Assembly: GCA_022450005.1 (NCBI GenBank)
Contig: JAKURE010000004.1
Coordinates: forward strand, 1-50,637
Source: Halobacteriales archaeon
GTDB lineage: Archaea; Halobacteriota; Halobacteria; Halobacteriales; Hikarchaeaceae
Length of the DNA stretch: 50,637 bases
Direction of reading: 5' to 3'
Shown piece after piece: positions 2,853 to 9,039 of this stretch (the stretch's first letter is position 1; each line of letters begins with the position of its first letter). The notes under the pieces are model-generated. The model saw only the letters and a program-made list of their open reading frames with translations. It was not told where the DNA came from and did not search any database. The translations under genes were made by a program, and so were the position numbers.

Positions 2853-4061
2853 ATGAACCGTGTGGCACTTGCATTCTCTGGTGGTCTCGATACAACCGTT
2901 TGTGTTTCAATTCTTAAAGAAGAATATGGATATGAAGATGTTATTGGAGTTTCAGTCAATGTAGGTCAACCTAAAAACGAATTCGAACAAGCAAAAGAAA
3001 CGGCAAAAGAGATATCTCTAGATTTAAAGATACTCGATGCTAGAACTGATTTTGCCAATTTATGCCTCGATTCTGTTAGAGCAAATGCAAGCTATCAAGG
3101 ATACCCCTTGGGAACTGCACTCGCCCGGCCTATCATAGCAAAAGCCATCCTAGAAGAGGCGAAAAAGACCAAATGCAATGCACTCGCACATGGGTGCACT
3201 GGCAAAGGAAACGACCAATTACGATTCGAAGCCATTTGGCGTGGATCCGGCCTTGAAATAGCAGCCCCTATACGCGATCTGGGGCTAACCAGAACTTGGG
3301 AAATACAATACGCAAAAGAAAATAATTTACCTATCAAATCCGGAAATGATGGGATTTGGAGCATCGATACAAATCTTTGGTCTAGATCAATTGAAGGGGG
3401 TGAACTTGAAGATCCCAGTACTATCCCTCCAAGTTCTATTTATGAGTGGACTCAATCTCCTTCTTCTGAATCTAAATTAGTAACCATAGAATTCGACGAA
3501 GGATATCCTGTCGCAGTGGACGGAACTAACTATTCTCCTGTAGAATTAATCGACCATCTAAACACACTATGTGGCCCTTTCGGAGTCGGAAGAACTGATG
3601 TAATGGAAGATAGGATACTGGGACTCAAAGTCCGAGAAAATTACGAACATCCTGCTGCAACTGCCCTTCTCAACGCACATTCCGCATTAGAAGATCTAGT
3701 ACTTACTAAGGAAGAGCGAAAGTTCAAAATCTCAGTCGATGATGCATGGGCAGAACAAGCATACTTGGGACTAATTTATTCACCTTTTATGGAAGCATTG
3801 AATGGCTTCATTTCTACTACTCAAAAACGAGTAACAGGATCTGTGACGTTAGACCTTCAAGGTGGCCACGCAAGAGCAGTTTCTCGAGAAAGTCCCTACG
3901 CAGTTCATTCTGCATCAGCAGCTTCTTTCAATACCCCTGGAGTCATAGATGACATAACACAATCAGATGCCATAGGGGTCGCAAAATACCACGGCCTCCA
4001 AGAAAGAATGTCTTCAGCACTCTTCGACTCTGAAATCCCTACAACACAAAACAAAAAATGA
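2853..4061 (+). CDS. argG: Argininosuccinate synthase
   Basis: LAFSGGLDT, AHGCTGKGNDQLRFE, SIDTNLWSRSIEG motifs. Confidence 0.97.
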   Translation: MNRVALAFSGGLDTTVCVSILKEEYGYEDVIGVSVNVGQPKNEFEQAKETAKEISLDLKILDARTDFANLCLDSVRANASYQGYPLGTALARPIIAKAILEEAKKTKCNALAHGCTGKGNDQLRFEAIWRGSGLEIAAPIRDLGLTRTWEIQYAKENNLPIKSGNDGIWSIDTNLWSRSIEGGELEDPSTIPPSSIYEWTQSPSSESKLVTIEFDEGYPVAVDGTNYSPVELIDHLNTLCGPFGVGRTDVMEDRILGLKVRENYEHPAATALLNAHSALEDLVLTKEERKFKISVDDAWAEQAYLGLIYSPFMEALNGFISTTQKRVTGSVTLDLQGGHARAVSRESPYAVHSASAASFNTPGVIDDITQSDAIGVAKYHGLQERMSSALFDSEIPTTQNKK

Positions 4062-4072
4062 AAAATAACTCC
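4030..4072 (+). repeat. Left direct repeat (attL-like) overlapping the argG stop and the captured ATG
   Basis: CTGAAATCCCTACAACACAAAACAAAAAATGAAAAATAACTCC matches 5375-5416; identical 14-nt core CACAAAACAAAAAA. Confidence 0.75.
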
Positions 4073-4615
4073 GACCCAACCCCATTTGGAAAGGAAGTTG
4101 AGAAGTTAGAGAACTTCACAGAACTAATACAACGTGGAGCGCGCATGGGGATTTCGTTGTCCATTTTATATATATTAGTTCGGGTAATAGCTGAACGGGA
4201 AATTGATTGGTTAGTTGCAGATATCGTGGTGGTGTTTGCATTCTCTCTGATCTGTCTCATGATGTTTTTAGGGGCATATGTGGGCCATGCACTGGATATG
4301 TTTGAAGATCCACCACAAACAACTAAGCAGATGTTCAAATCACTGGATATCCCTCCCAAAAGTAGCAAAGGGTGGTGGTTTTTGGGAGGTGCAGTTGTGA
4401 CCATTGTGATGGTGACTGTGGTGACTCTGTACTTCCTTGACAGATATTACTGGATGGGTTATCAATGGCAGATAGCACCATTGGTGGGTTTGGCGGTCGT
4501 AATGCTAGAGATGATGCTCATAGGCGCGGGGGGCAGTAATGCTGAATTTGTACTGAAAACTATCCAAGCATCAGGGGTAGTTGGCAGGGGTAATAGACGG
4601 GTAGAAAGAAGGTAG
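4058..4615 (+). CDS. Hypothetical 4-TM membrane protein (element cargo) starting at the apparent ancestral argH ATG
   Basis: 185-aa ORF with 4 hydrophobic segments; ATGA overlap with the argG stop; begins MKNNSD, compare KNDSSD at the ArgH N-terminus. Confidence 0.65.
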   Translation: MKNNSDPTPFGKEVEKLENFTELIQRGARMGISLSILYILVRVIAEREIDWLVADIVVVFAFSLICLMMFLGAYVGHALDMFEDPPQTTKQMFKSLDIPPKSSKGWWFLGGAVVTIVMVTVVTLYFLDRYYWMGYQWQIAPLVGLAVVMLEMMLIGAGGSNAEFVLKTIQASGVVGRGNRRVERR

Positions 4616-4721: not shown

Positions 4722-4763
4722 ATTTTACAAACTATGAAAGGCATTTTACAAACTATGGAAGGA
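4722..4763 (+). repeat. Tandem 21-bp direct repeat (2 copies)
   Basis: ATTTTACAAACTATGAAAGGC (4722-4742) and ATTTTACAAACTATGGAAGGA (4743-4763). Confidence 0.85.
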
Positions 4764-4796: not shown

Positions 4797-4812
4797 AAAA
4801 AGAGCTTTATAG
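4797..4812 (+). promoter_or_regulatory. BRE/TATA promoter of the integrase-argH fusion (leaderless spacing)
   Basis: Purine-rich AAAAAGAG followed by TTTATAG (4806-4812), about 23-29 nt before ATG 4835. Confidence 0.55.
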
Positions 4813-4834: not shown

Positions 4835-6844
4835 ATGGTTAGGAAAGTTGAGTTCCCAAAGAAAAAAGGCAAATTTGCCTGCTGGCTAAGCCGTGAGGAA
4901 GTAAAACACCTCATCGAACAATGTACAGAATCAAGAGACGAAGAAATAATTCTCACCCTTTTAGCCTCTGGTTTGAGAGTTCACGAAGCCTGTAAAGCTT
5001 CCTCGGAGGATATTTTTGAAGACGGTCGAGGTCTAATGATAAAAATTTGGGGTAAAAATTCCCAATACAGGGAAGCCCCCATTCCGGCCACCCTGAAAAC
5101 GGCCGACCTACCAATCACACGTAAATACAACGGAATCCACAGGCCCATTTCAACCAACACAGCTTTAGCATGGGTAAAAAAAGCAGGGAAAAACTTGGGA
5201 TGCCCAGAACTCTCACCACATGATTTACGTCGTTCCTACGCCTCGATCCTGCTTGAATCCAATATCGACCCGACCGTTATAATGGAATGGCTGGGCTGGA
5301 GTAGCTGGGAGACATTTCAACGATTCAATATGAACGTGGCAAATCCAGATTTTCAAAAACACGAACGAGAAAAACTGAATTTCCTACCCACAAAACAAAA
5401 AACAAAAAATGACTCCTCCGATATAATACGTGGAACCCGTTTCAGCGGAGGGCCTGCTAGAAACTTCCTCTCTTCAATGGATGTAGATCACCAAATCTTC
5501 GATGCAGATATCGCAGTAGATTTGGCACACGTAGTAATGTTAGCAGAAGAAAATATAATCTCCAAAGACAACGCCAAAGGCATACTAGAAGCTCTTTTTT
5601 CCATTCACGAAATGGGATTTGAAAGCTTACCTCCTGCTGAGGATGTCCACGCAGCAATTGAAACAGCGGTAGTAACTAAAGTTGGAGATTCTGGTGGGAG
5701 AATGCATACTGCTAGGAGTAGGAACGACGAAGTTTCAACATGCATTCGTTATCAATTGCGAAGTGACATTTTGTCTCTACTAAATTCGGTTTTATCTTTG
5801 CGAGAAACTATCCTTTCCATCGCCAAGAGCCACACCTCTACTCTAATCCCTGGGTTCACTCATCTACAAAGTGCACAACCATCAACCCTTTCTCATTGGC
5901 TCGTATCCTACTATGGATCTCTCGAACGGGACACTAACCGATTATTTGATGCTTATAGTCGCATCAATCTATCCCCTCTCGGATCTGCAGCCTTTGCAGG
6001 AACTCCCTTCCCCATCAACCGTGAACGAACCGCAACCCTCCTTGGATTTGAAGGTATAATAGAAAACACAATGGACGCCGTTTCTTCTAGAGATTTTTTA
6101 CTAGAATCTGCGGCAGCTCTGTGCTCTCTTTCTATTACATTCTCAAATATGTCTGAAGATTTAATTTTTTACTCAAATAAGAGCTTTGTTGAGATAGACG
6201 ATGATTACGCGTCTACTTCTTCTATCATGCCTCAAAAGAAAAATCCAGACACACTAGAATTAATACGAGCGGCTGCAGCAACAACCCTTGCCACCTTTTC
6301 CGGTACTTTTACAACTTTAAAAGGCCTCCCCCGTGCTTACAATAGAGACCTTCAATCAGCGACCCCTTATATTTGGAACTCCGTCGAAAAAATGATCGAT
6401 TCCGCAGAAATTCTCTCCAAAATAATAGAAACTTCAACCTGGAATGTCGAACTTCTTTCTAGTTCTGCAGGAGAGGGATTCTCCACCGCAACTGGCGTTG
6501 CCGATACCCTAGCTATGGCCGGAATACCCTTCCGAAAAGCGCACCAAATCATAGCAAAATCAGAAAGTAATTATGAAGATATTTCTTCAAATTTCAACGA
6601 AATAATGGGATCCCCACTCAGTGAATTTTGTACCCAGGATTCAATAGAATCTGCTTTAGATCCCCTCAAAAACGTCGATATGAGGGATTCATTAGGGGGC
6701 CCTTCGCCCACCATTGTTTTAAATTCAATTTCCAATGCTAAAAACAACCTAAAATCAGATTTTTCCCTCCACACGGCGCATAAAGAAAAAATAGACCAAT
6801 CAAAAGAAAAATTGATTCAAGAAGCTATGAGTTACTTGAAATAA
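4835..6844 (+). CDS. argH: Fusion ORF: SNJ2-like tyrosine integrase (aa 1-184) plus argininosuccinate lyase (aa ~190-669)
   Basis: N-part has SGLRVHE, WGK, SPHDLRRSYA, WLGW; C-part has RFSGGP, HTARSRND, GFTHLQSAQP, STSSIMPQKKNPD; no stop between them. Confidence 0.92.
   Translation: MVRKVEFPKKKGKFACWLSREEVKHLIEQCTESRDEEIILTLLASGLRVHEACKASSEDIFEDGRGLMIKIWGKNSQYREAPIPATLKTADLPITRKYNGIHRPISTNTALAWVKKAGKNLGCPELSPHDLRRSYASILLESNIDPTVIMEWLGWSSWETFQRFNMNVANPDFQKHEREKLNFLPTKQKTKNDSSDIIRGTRFSGGPARNFLSSMDVDHQIFDADIAVDLAHVVMLAEENIISKDNAKGILEALFSIHEMGFESLPPAEDVHAAIETAVVTKVGDSGGRMHTARSRNDEVSTCIRYQLRSDILSLLNSVLSLRETILSIAKSHTSTLIPGFTHLQSAQPSTLSHWLVSYYGSLERDTNRLFDAYSRINLSPLGSAAFAGTPFPINRERTATLLGFEGIIENTMDAVSSRDFLLESAAALCSLSITFSNMSEDLIFYSNKSFVEIDDDYASTSSIMPQKKNPDTLELIRAAAATTLATFSGTFTTLKGLPRAYNRDLQSATPYIWNSVEKMIDSAEILSKIIETSTWNVELLSSSAGEGFSTATGVADTLAMAGIPFRKAHQIIAKSESNYEDISSNFNEIMGSPLSEFCTQDSIESALDPLKNVDMRDSLGGPSPTIVLNSISNAKNNLKSDFSLHTAHKEKIDQSKEKLIQEAMSYLK
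5375..5416 (+). repeat. Right direct repeat (attR-like) at the integrase/ArgH junction
   Basis: CTGAATTTCCTACCCACAAAACAAAAAACAAAAAATGACTCC; ACA at 5402-5404 aligns with ATG at 4058-4060. Confidence 0.75.
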
Positions 6845-6909: not shown

Positions 6910-7080
6910 ATGACAAGCACAACTTGTGTGGAATGTGGCTCAGAACTCACAATATCAGACGACGTAGAATCTGGAGAAATTTTGGATTGTGATACTTGTG
7001 GAATCGAACTAGAGGTAATTGGCGTGGGCCCCGTGGAACTCTCCAAAGCACCCGAGCTCGAAGAAGATTGGGGAGAATAA
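6910..7080 (+). CDS. lysW: Amino-group carrier protein LysW/ArgW (56 aa, absent from the ORF track)
   Basis: MTSTTCVECG...CDTCG...APELEEDWGE: two CxxC pairs and the diagnostic C-terminal EDWGE. Confidence 0.97.
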   Translation: MTSTTCVECGSELTISDDVESGEILDCDTCGIELEVIGVGPVELSKAPELEEDWGE

Positions 7081-7135
7081 CAGTTTTAGGTATATAGGAA
7101 CACTTATTAATCGAGTAATCCTAAGTGATCCTCTC

Positions 7136-8002
7136 ATGAATGTCGGGTTTTTATATTCCCAAATTAGGGCGGACGAGAAGTTACTTCTAACCGAATTGAG
7201 GTCTAGAGGCCACGACATACTCAAAATAGATGTCCGAAAACATCAATTTTCTATACAAGGTCCTTCCTCTGAATTCAAAGATTTAGATGTTGTAATCGAT
7301 AGATGTATAGCACAAAGCCAAAGTAAATTTGCTTCTCTCTTTTTTGCTTCATATGGCATTCCTATCATCAACGATCCTATGGTCGTCGAACGGTGTTCTG
7401 ATAAAGTTAAAACCAGTCTTTTACTAGCGAATGCGGGAATACCCACTCCCGAAACAACGATAGCATTTTCTCCGGAAAGTGCTCTCGAAACAATCGAAAC
7501 CATGGGATATCCTTGTGTAATAAAACCAATTGTGGGGTCCTGGGGGCGCCTAATGGCAAAAATAGACACCAGAGCTGCCGCAGAGGCAATTATAGAACAC
7601 AAAGCAACACTTGGGCACTATGAACACAAAATTTTCTATATACAGAAATTTATCAATAAACCCAACCGGGATATCCGTGTAGTTGCAGTCGATGGGAATG
7701 CCATCGCCGCAATGACTAGAACTTCAACACATTGGCTAACAAACGCTGCAAAAGGAGCCACAGTCGATGCATATAATATACCCAAAGAAGTAGCGTCACT
7801 CGTCGAAAAAGCTTCGAAAGTCGTTGGAGGAGGCTTACTCGGGGTCGATCTTATGGAACTCGACGATGGAGGATTTACTGTGCACGAAATTAACCCTGGA
7901 ACTGAATTCAAAGCACTCAATGAATGTGTGGATGTAGATGTTCCTTCTCATATAATTAATTGGATAGAATCCGTTACTAACAAAAAAGGTGAAACCCAAT
8001 GA
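7136..8002 (+). CDS. argX: Glutamate--LysW ligase (RimK/LysX ATP-grasp family)
   Basis: Likely start MNVGFLYS; KPIVGSWGRLMAKI, WLTNAAKG, GVDLME, HEIN motifs; follows lysW within an arg cluster. Confidence 0.92.
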   Translation: MNVGFLYSQIRADEKLLLTELRSRGHDILKIDVRKHQFSIQGPSSEFKDLDVVIDRCIAQSQSKFASLFFASYGIPIINDPMVVERCSDKVKTSLLLANAGIPTPETTIAFSPESALETIETMGYPCVIKPIVGSWGRLMAKIDTRAAAEAIIEHKATLGHYEHKIFYIQKFINKPNRDIRVVAVDGNAIAAMTRTSTHWLTNAAKGATVDAYNIPKEVASLVEKASKVVGGGLLGVDLMELDDGGFTVHEINPGTEFKALNECVDVDVPSHIINWIESVTNKKGETQ

Positions 8003-9039
8003 CATTTTCAGCCTCTGTAATTGGGGCAAGTGGTTTCACCGGAGGAGAGTTGCTAAGGCTACTAACCGACCATCCCCAATTCGAAATAAAGCAAGCTACC
8101 AGTCGTAAATATTCTGGCCGTTCTATCGGATACACACACCCAAACCTTCGAGATTTGAAATTAAAATATTCTTCCCCTGAAGAACTAGAATCTGTCGACG
8201 TACTCTTTGCGGCAACTCCTCATGGGGTTTCTATGAGTAGGATCGATGATTTTTCTGAAGCTTCTGATATTGTGGTGGATCTAAGTGCAGACTTTAGACT
8301 CAAAGATCCTCAGAAATATGATCAATATTACGATGGCCATTCTCGCCCAGAATTACTTGAAAAAGCCGTCTATGGACTCCCCGAGATCCACCGAGAACAT
8401 TTACGATCCGCAAAACTAATTGCTTGTGGTGGGTGCAACTCTACAGTCACCCTTCTTGGCCTGTATCCTTTGTTCAAAACAGGAATACTAACCCCAAAAG
8501 ACACTATCGTAGCAGATATAAAAGTTGGTTCCTCCGAAGGGGGAGCTAGTGGGAGTACCTCCTCTCACCATGCAATCCGATCTGGTATCGTTCGTCCTTA
8601 CGCTCCAACTGGCCATAGACACGAAGCAGAAATAGAACAAGAACTAGGCTCAAACGTAGCCTTCACAGTTCATGCAGTCGATATGATTAGGGGGGCATCT
8701 GCAACATGCCACAGTTTCCCAACAAAACAGAACTTAGACAAACCAATGATTTGGCAAGCATATAGGAATTCTTACGAAAATGAACCATTTGTCAATTTAT
8801 TGAGTGGCGCTGGGGGAAACTATCGCTACCCCGAACCAAAGGTAGTTGCTGGAACCAACAATGTGGAAATAGCATTTGAAATCGATGAAAGGAACAACAG
8901 AATCGTAGTCTTTTCTGTGATTGATAATATGATGAAAGGATCTGCAGGACAAGCTATTCACGCTACCAATATAGCGCTCGGTCTCGACGAAACCTTGGGG
9001 CTTTCATATAGAAGTTTACACCCCACTGGGTCACCCTAA
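7999..9039 (+). CDS. argC: [LysW]-glutamyl-phosphate reductase (ArgC/LysY)
   Basis: GASGFTGGELLRLL, DLSADFRL, DNMMKGSAGQA. Confidence 0.95.
   Translation: MTFSASVIGASGFTGGELLRLLTDHPQFEIKQATSRKYSGRSIGYTHPNLRDLKLKYSSPEELESVDVLFAATPHGVSMSRIDDFSEASDIVVDLSADFRLKDPQKYDQYYDGHSRPELLEKAVYGLPEIHREHLRSAKLIACGGCNSTVTLLGLYPLFKTGILTPKDTIVADIKVGSSEGGASGSTSSHHAIRSGIVRPYAPTGHRHEAEIEQELGSNVAFTVHAVDMIRGASATCHSFPTKQNLDKPMIWQAYRNSYENEPFVNLLSGAGGNYRYPEPKVVAGTNNVEIAFEIDERNNRIVVFSVIDNMMKGSAGQAIHATNIALGLDETLGLSYRSLHPTGSP

Follow-up and report, generated by a model that had tools for sequence, protein, structure and literature searches.

A tyrosine-less integrase domain, conserved and in frame with argininosuccinate lyase, in a Halobacteriales archaeon

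What becomes of an integrase once it has lost the residue that cuts DNA? This question is raised by a locus on contig JAKURE010000004.1 (NCBI GenBank assembly GCA_022450005.1) of a Halobacteriales archaeon of the Hikarchaeaceae, of which we analysed positions 1 to 50,637 of the forward strand (50,637 nucleotides; hereafter the window). There, an open reading frame (ORF) of 669 amino acids joins the catalytic domain of a tyrosine recombinase, encoded by int, to argininosuccinate lyase (ArgH). An earlier note on this DNA, made from the letters of the sequence, had remarked that the integrase lacks its catalytic tyrosine and proposed that the element may be locked in place. Our alignments confirm that the nucleophilic Tyr has been lost, that Asn165 stands in its column and that the rest of the active site is kept. 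Moreover, as judged from the comparison of its copies, the Tyr-less integrase is not decaying and its amino-acid sequence is under purifying selection.

The window's genome (G000, 71% complete) was set beside other genomes of the same genus (G001-G005 and G007) and beside further loci and contigs (L0xx). The integrase is carried by five of the eight genomes compared in the genus, all five being species-level (G000, G001, G003, G004 and G005), and four further copies of the insert to which it belongs were found on metagenome contigs (L050-L053). The window's genome, as far as it is complete, holds one copy of int only. Eight full copies of int were available for comparison, those of the five genomes and of the contigs L050, L051 and L052.

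The missing nucleophile and the conservation of the domain

Pfam recognizes three domains in the 669-amino-acid ORF: Phage_integrase at residues 17-165 (E 5.5e-18), Lyase_1 at residues 235-482 and ASL_C2 at residues 549-613. The integrase domain scores 65.8 bits against PF00589, for which the cutoff is 27.1, and no further Pfam domain lies upstream of this catalytic domain, which begins at residue 17. The lyase part (the C-terminal 478 amino acids) passes the TIGR00838 argH equivalog model with 460.1 bits (cutoff 279.5), and it is the single argH-grade match in the 71%-complete genome of the window.

All the residues and codons that the earlier note had named in the integrase (R48, K74, H129, R132, W155, F164 and N165) lie where it had put them, and E51 is intact as well; the positions of E51 and W155 are also kept in the relatives. 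The note had further stated that the segment after W155 is devoid of Tyr, and this holds for the whole of residues 150-200. It had left two candidate positions for the lost nucleophile, F164 and N165, each with a codon one base from a Tyr codon. The latter detail is borne out by the nearest Tyr-bearing genes, which have TAC/TAT TAT/TAC opposite the TTC AAT of the window, but only one of the two positions stands. We aligned 20 relatives, five of them close (70-79% identity) and 15 distant (30-37% identity, from other genomes of the order): Tyr is found opposite N165 in 20/20, and column 164 contains H, Y or F. The motif reads ...ETF[RL]xHY in the 15 distant relatives and ...WETFRK[Y/F/H]Y... 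in the five close ones, which are stand-alone proteins of 184-212 amino acids. A wider check, in which the 150 best representatives from a library of 1.84 billion proteins were aligned, gave Tyr in 144 and Asn in none at column 165, the other six being gaps, fragments or doubtful rows. The remaining active-site columns are similarly uniform (Arg-I R 144, Lys K 138, His-II H 144, Arg-II R 148, His/Trp-III H/W 145). F164 had also been suggested as the lost Tyr by an ungapped pairwise alignment to the XerA structure 4a8e; the family alignments ruled it out.

The codons TTC AAT are present in all eight full carrier copies (five genomes and three metagenome contigs). Assemblies of three DNA runs, each from a different study, also cover positions 5324-5329 and give no other letter there, although rare alleles would not show in such contigs. 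The substitution is therefore not an assembly slip. A search among proteins of 105-335 amino acids gave no stand-alone Asn form, and the only longer form found is the 669-amino-acid cluster P0167.

An AlphaFold2 model of the integrase domain, built on an alignment of 45 sequences, has a mean pLDDT of 93.4. Its top Foldseek matches are XerH (5jjv) and XerA (5hxy), and the Foldseek probability is 1.00 to XerH, XerA, IntI and Cre. As modelled, the fold of the Tyr-less integrase is thus intact. By sequence and by fold, the protein is a member of the tyrosine-recombinase superfamily, yet it is without the nucleophile that defines this superfamily.

We then considered how int has changed among its carriers. 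Asn165 is common to all of them, and the differences between them therefore postdate the loss of the Tyr, a single origin being assumed. Pairwise Nei-Gojobori estimates over codons 1-183 gave dN/dS values of 0.035-0.114 for the ten genome pairs. The most distant pair, G000-G005, is separated in int by 41.5 synonymous and 13.5 non-synonymous differences (dS 0.48), and the non-synonymous divergence does not exceed 0.034 among carriers. By the same measure, dN/dS is 0.055-0.18 for argH and 0.066-0.087 for argG, and it is 0.020 for int in an active-looking, Tyr-bearing pair (L047-L048). In this comparison, int is as tightly conserved as argG and argH, and nearly as tightly as its active relatives. 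Variable sites among the eight copies are distributed 14/12/55 over the three codon positions, and the minimum number of changes amounts to 62 synonymous and 18 non-synonymous events (binomial test against the proportion of non-synonymous sites, P = 2e-26). Stops or frameshifts are absent from the int part in all eight copies. The earlier note had proposed either a recent loss of the Tyr or a retained binding role; on these figures we reject the recent loss, and a binding role fits them better. As a separate observation, int shows roughly double the synonymous divergence of argH between G000 and G003.

An insert at the junction of argG and argH

The integrase gene lies in an insert of 0.75-1.34 kb (1344 bp in the window) at the junction of argG and argH, bordered by direct repeats of 34-43 bp (Table 1). 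In the window, a local alignment of the left and right repeats (attL and attR) has 36 matches over 43 columns with one gap; elsewhere the repeats match at 41/42 positions in G003, 35/35 in G004, 34/34 in G005 and 36/42 in G001. The repeat corresponds to the native junction, where the final codons of argG meet the initial ones of argH. Two genomes of the same genus, G002 and G007, have an empty site in which argG directly abuts or overlaps argH, and ArgH begins there with MTNNSHDII... and MTSDSPDII..., respectively; the argG orthologues of relatives encode 404 amino acids. Related integrases terminate in ...DFLN or ...WL, precisely where the repeat begins. Taken together, the repeats, the empty sites and the ends of the family members bear the hallmark of a site-specific integration in which the attachment site and the 3' end of int overlap. 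Since the stop of related integrases lies where the repeat begins, the integrated int is left without a stop of its own and reads into argH. No tRNA gene was found in the window, and a search with a seed of 6 revealed no inverted repeats within the att repeats or close to them.

The resulting frame is open in nearly all copies. From stop to stop, it spans 674 amino acids in G000, G001, G003, G004 and L052, and in G005, L050 and L053 it stays open as far as the contig reaches. In L051 (3986-6006) the frame is interrupted inside argH, giving 524 + 165 amino acids; this could be a frameshift in the population or a contig error. Gene callers give the fusion as one protein, that of cluster P0167 (57 members), which the NCBI names 'MAG: argininosuccinate lyase [Halobacteriales archaeon]'. 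Annotators should be aware that this protein, deposited as 'argininosuccinate lyase', has an unrelated N-terminal domain of 190 amino acids. Outside the window's genus, the places listed by an order-wide search for integrase relatives in 301 genomes have open frames of 96-344 amino acids and none longer; among the genomes searched, the fusion of int and argH is therefore a trait of this clade only.

The same search found relatives of the integrase (E <= 1e-10) in 72 of the 301 genomes, with lengths of about 190-250 amino acids. They form a catalytic-domain-only family with the C-terminal pattern ...GGWxDWETFxxHY...WL followed by the stop, and some genomes have several copies (loci L026-L040). 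Stand-alone, Tyr-bearing relatives with 70-83% identity are present on four marine metagenome contigs (L046-L049). None of the 16 ORFs scanned on these contigs matched a Pfam family, and the contigs probably represent archaeal mobile elements or viruses that have yet to be characterised. Downstream of int, L046-L049 show no similarity to the argG/argH repeat, and these relatives probably target other sites. A tblastn search against 50,697 phage records returned only bacterial-phage integrases with less than 31% identity and no haloarchaeal virus, and PHROGs gave generic integrase families only. Integrases of about 190 amino acids that are reduced to the catalytic domain, with no core-binding domain for DNA recognition, thus appear to form a large and little-studied family in archaea related to Halobacteria.

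The window's element contains, in addition to int, an ORF for a membrane protein. It has no Pfam or PHROG family and was found at the argG/argH site only in G000, G001, L050 and L052. In G003, G004 and G005 it is absent from the insert, which measures only about 0.75 kb and is made up of int and some 170 nt of spacer. Orthologues of the membrane ORF occur in G002 and G004 in a conserved host context, between zinc-ribbon-like and acetolactate-synthase-like genes. Because it is absent from the insert of three carriers and has orthologues in a separate host locus, the membrane ORF appears to be a secondary arrival, a host gene that moved into the left att site. We had also considered an SSV-like split, in which circularisation of the 1344-bp insert would fuse int with the membrane ORF; this was dropped, as G003, G004 and G005 have the same int and repeats without the ORF, and as the ORF has its own host locus in G002 and G004. 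G005 has the membrane ORF in a third context. Some of its database homologues (P0015, P0016) have an additional N-terminal stretch of about 70-85 amino acids, and the source organism of one homologue is given as Candidatus Hikarchaeum yamanae.

Upstream of int, two tandem 20-nt repeats are present in G000, G001, G003 and G004, and G005 has one copy, the other being deleted. No such repeats precede int in the Tyr-bearing relatives L046-L049. The repeats of the carriers could be a protein-binding site. The TTTATA motif further downstream is a putative archaeal promoter, expected from its position to give a leaderless int mRNA. The block around this motif is almost invariant in the five carriers, and it is recognisable upstream of int in the Tyr-bearing L048 and L049.

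Table 1. Features of the argG-int-argH locus in the window (+, forward strand)
Feature	Position	Strand	Basis or remark
argG (argininosuccinate synthase; named by reading the sequence)	2853..4061	+	final 9-10 codons inside attL
attL, left imperfect direct repeat	4030..4072	+	argG 3' end and first codons of the old argH start
185-aa membrane ORF, four helices (counted by reading)	4058..4615	+	begins on the former argH start codon, overlapping the argG stop
Two tandem 20-nt repeats upstream of int	4722..4762	+	about 75-110 nt before the int start
TATA-like TTTATA	4806..4811	+	about 26 nt before the int ATG
int-ArgH ORF, 669 aa	4835..6844	+	ORF list; Phage_integrase, then lyase domains
Integrase catalytic domain, codons 1-183	4835..5383	+	PF00589, AlphaFold2, Foldseek; without N-terminal DNA-binding domain
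R48	4976-4978	+	intact
K74	5054-5056	+	intact
H129	5219-5221	+	intact
R132	5228-5230	+	intact
W155	5297-5299	+	intact
F164 (TTC)	5324..5326	+	variable family column (H/Y/F), not the nucleophile
N165 (AAT)	5327..5329	+	sits in the family's invariant catalytic Tyr column
M166 (ATG), closest in-frame ATG before the ArgH body	5330..5332	+	sequence
attR, right direct repeat	5375..5416	+	last int codons (..LNFL), linker, argH start region
Former argH start, codons 190-191	5402..5407	+	ACA AAA in the window, ATG ACA in all other carriers compared
ArgH body (argininosuccinate lyase) including stop codon	5408..6844	+	TIGR00838, Lyase_1, ASL_C2

Downstream of argH (6910-9039), we noticed a 56-aa zinc-ribbon ORF (LysW-like), an ATP-grasp ORF (LysX/ArgX-like) and an ArgC-like ORF, all named by reading. 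This order would fit a cluster for a carrier-protein pathway of arginine or lysine synthesis.

A proposed path from integrase to a part of ArgH

Does the loss of the Tyr have anything to do with the fusion? In the earlier note, the integrase was inactivated selectively, to prevent self-excision or toxicity, once it had to be expressed to make ArgH. This causal order fails. The argH start is kept as ATG ACA in G001, G003, G004, G005, L050, L051 and L052 and is lost only in the window's lineage. The ACA AAA allele of the window is also present in L053 and in the runs X1 and X14, and it was seen in assemblies from three studies; in run X6 the two alleles occur together (5403 C>T, 5404 A>G, 5406 A>C). 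The L050 integrase is identical to that of the window over residues 1-184, yet the argH ATG is kept there. In the ATG-less lineage, argH is still under purifying selection (G000-G001 dN/dS 0.055). From these alignments, the loss of the argH ATG is real, recent and restricted to one lineage, and Asn165 is older and shared. As Asn165 occurs in all carriers and the ATG loss in a single lineage, the loss of the Tyr was no response to that of the ATG. A weaker form of the idea may hold: the frame has no stop between int and argH in every carrier, so that co-translation may date from the integration itself. This stop-less frame in all carriers, the broken overlap of argG and argH, and the constraint on argH after the ATG loss together suggest that ribosomes starting at int already supplied ArgH before the ATG was lost. 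In the window's lineage, M166 would be a possible alternative start for ArgH.

We consider with moderate confidence that the element is an immobilised and exapted dead integrase, now serving as a translated leader or N-terminal domain of ArgH and possibly still able to bind DNA. In such a scenario, a single change from TAT to AAT would have removed the nucleophile. Without cleavage, the element could not excise and would be inherited with the chromosome. The proposal of the earlier note that the element is locked in place agrees with the finding of the same insertion site in five species-level genomes of one genus. The insertion would have severed argH from its presumed translational coupling to argG. 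Transcription would start from int's own TATA-like promoter and ribosomes would begin at the int ATG, probably on a leaderless messenger, and read-through would yield a fusion protein, Int(Y165N)-ArgH, in which the dead domain would be an obligatory, folded N-terminal part of the only ArgH detected in the cell. An obligatory fusion would explain why the frame is kept open, why its sequence is conserved and why the ATG of argH could be dispensed with in the window's lineage. In addition, the intact phosphate-binding pocket (R48, K74, H129, R132 and W155) may have kept an affinity for the att repeats or for the 20-nt repeats that precede int, and such binding could be used for regulation or for blocking related, active integrases.

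Several points weigh against this scenario. The fusion protein is predicted from sequence, and the sole piece from an RNA library is a 160-nt contig inside int (5030-5189) that is possibly DNA carry-over. Likewise, the promoter and the leaderless start are predictions from a motif only. Seven of the eight copies keep the argH ATG, so that most carriers could make a separate ArgH through internal initiation. For a mere passenger at the N-terminus, one would expect weaker constraint than a dN/dS of about 0.05; the tight conservation suggests that the domain has a function of its own. The 18 non-synonymous events are too few to judge whether residues involved in DNA binding or in the active site are specially protected, about 0.5 chance hits being expected on the five pocket residues. 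Finally, the nearest neighbour of G001 is G003 in int (dS 0.062) but G000 in argH (dS 0.066); there has thus been some recombination between lineages inside the locus, and strict vertical descent is a simplification.

It is tempting to go one step further and to suggest, more tentatively, that the dead integrase domain is a selected, working part of the only ArgH, which may tether or regulate the enzyme on DNA or, alternatively, guard the duplicated att sites against active relatives. If true, a prokaryotic tyrosine recombinase would here have been domesticated through its fusion to an enzyme of core metabolism. Our literature searches returned no report of such a domesticated fusion, nor of the combination of features described here; a related match concerned the eukaryotic Cryptons.

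Alternatively, the domain could itself have a DNA-binding task, for instance in regulating the arg genes or its own promoter, or in occupying the att sites and poisoning incoming relatives, the read-through into ArgH being incidental. We regard this as unlikely. In its favour, the domain is conserved as tightly as its active relatives, its phosphate-binding residues are intact, conserved tandem repeats lie upstream of int, and Tyr-bearing relatives with 70-79% identity exist in marine metagenome contigs. The model also matches a chain of the phage repressor SroF (Foldseek rank 38), and MrpR provides a precedent for a recombinase fold turned repressor (PMC10516654). However, the family is without a separate DNA-binding domain and has no known binding site, the att repeats and their surroundings yielded no inverted repeats, and the flanks downstream of int in L046-L049 are unlike the att repeat, so that these relatives probably target other sites. 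Furthermore, the domain lacks a stop codon with which it could be produced on its own.

The selective explanation of the earlier note, in which forced co-production with ArgH made an active enzyme harmful (by excision, nicking or off-target recombination) and loss of the Tyr was positively selected, is doubtful to the same degree. Co-expression as old as the integration, as allowed by the frame without a stop in every carrier, would accommodate it, as would the disappearance of both hydroxyl residues of the relatives' YY pair (now F and N) from a pocket that is otherwise kept. On the other hand, the loss of the argH ATG is younger than Asn165 and found in the window's lineage only. An exact excision would re-create the native junction of argG and argH, with no obvious harm to the host. 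With the present data, one fixed substitution is indistinguishable from drift, and column 164 is F in the otherwise Tyr-bearing P0004, so that a change from Y to F at this position need not be an inactivation.

A neutral relic, the pseudogene of a dead element too young to have decayed, would account for an enzyme without nucleophile and for an insert that has lost all cargo in G003, G004 and G005, but it is very improbable given a dS of up to 0.48 between carriers against a dN of at most 0.034, the excess of synonymous over non-synonymous events and an int free of stops and frameshifts in all eight copies. It is scarcely credible that the protein still recombines DNA through another nucleophile or with a Tyr given in trans by a partner: all the activating residues are kept and donation of the Tyr in trans is known for Flp, but residues 150-200 are free of Tyr, no second family member was found in the window's 71%-complete genome, all carriers have the same single locus, and no contig joins across the insert in four runs (a weak indication, as these are assembled contigs).

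An exapted integrase domain of ArgH would be a clean example from nature of the fate of an integrase that can no longer cut DNA: instead of decaying, it is under strong purifying selection across several species while fused in frame to an essential biosynthetic enzyme. The mobile element targeted the overlap of two protein-coding genes, not a tRNA gene, and thereby created a translational fusion. This offers a testable route from a selfish integrase to a host protein domain.

Relation to known integrases and recombinase-fold proteins

The protein can be compared, as regards size and architecture, with the haloarchaeal families that consist of a single PF00589 domain, listed as HSTV2-like, fam30-07, fam30-17 and fam30-28 in a review (PMC8371274). 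These families, widespread in the same order, are likewise reduced to the catalytic domain and about 185-230 amino acids long, and the protein fits their description as a group. It differs from them in having Asn in place of the Tyr, a junction of protein genes instead of a tRNA gene as target, and a fusion to ArgH.

The earlier note had likened the integrase to the SNJ2 family. It does share several traits with SNJ2-type enzymes, which are also integrases of haloarchaeal mobile elements with an R...HxxR tetrad and an att core near the 3' end of int. However, SNJ2-type integrases are defined by the replacement of Glu/Asp-I by Gly/Ala and of His/Trp-III by Ala/Val (PMC5861418), and they combine a SAM-like N-terminal domain (Phage_int_SAM) with PF00589 and target tRNA genes (PMC8371274); they are often accompanied by the helper genes orf2 and orf3. 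Here, E51 and W155 are retained, there is no SAM-like domain at the N-terminus and the target is argG/argH with no tRNA, so that membership in this type fails on the published definition.

The 'suicidal' integrases of the SSV type (PMC7253208, PMC8371274) also have an attachment site that overlaps the int ORF, and their integration alters the gene product. In the SSV type, attP lies inside the ORF and int is split into Int(N) and Int(C), whereas in the present case the catalytic domain stays whole and only the last three to four codons and the stop are exchanged, after which the gene is joined to a host enzyme. An SSV-type identity was rejected since the catalytic domain is unsplit and the tetrad is HxxR, not KxxR. 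Archaeal XerA (4a8e, 5hxy) shares the fold of the catalytic domain, and 4a8e is the best sequence match among solved structures (E 8.4e-15). The protein differs from XerA in that it has no N-terminal domain, a spacing from Trp/His-III to the Tyr position that is one residue longer, and no Tyr; identity with XerA was rejected, as the score against the XerA family NF040815 is 78.1 bits, far from the cutoff of 220.

A parallel in terms of fate is found among phage repressors. MrpR of the Bacillus phage SPbeta has a tyrosine-recombinase fold, has lost the recombinase function and acts as a repressor (PMC10516654). MrpR/YopR of SPbeta and SroF of phi3T (PDB 9rgl) resemble the present domain in that a recombinase fold has been kept by selection for another role after its function was lost. 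MrpR and SroF are free-standing phage repressors with mapped operators, whereas the domain studied here is fused to a metabolic enzyme; what is established for it is the resemblance in fold and its own loss of the nucleophile. Integrase relics and recombinase-fold proteins with changed tasks are already known; what is new here is the combination of integration into the overlap of two biosynthetic genes, fusion to the only ArgH detected, and strong purifying selection across species.

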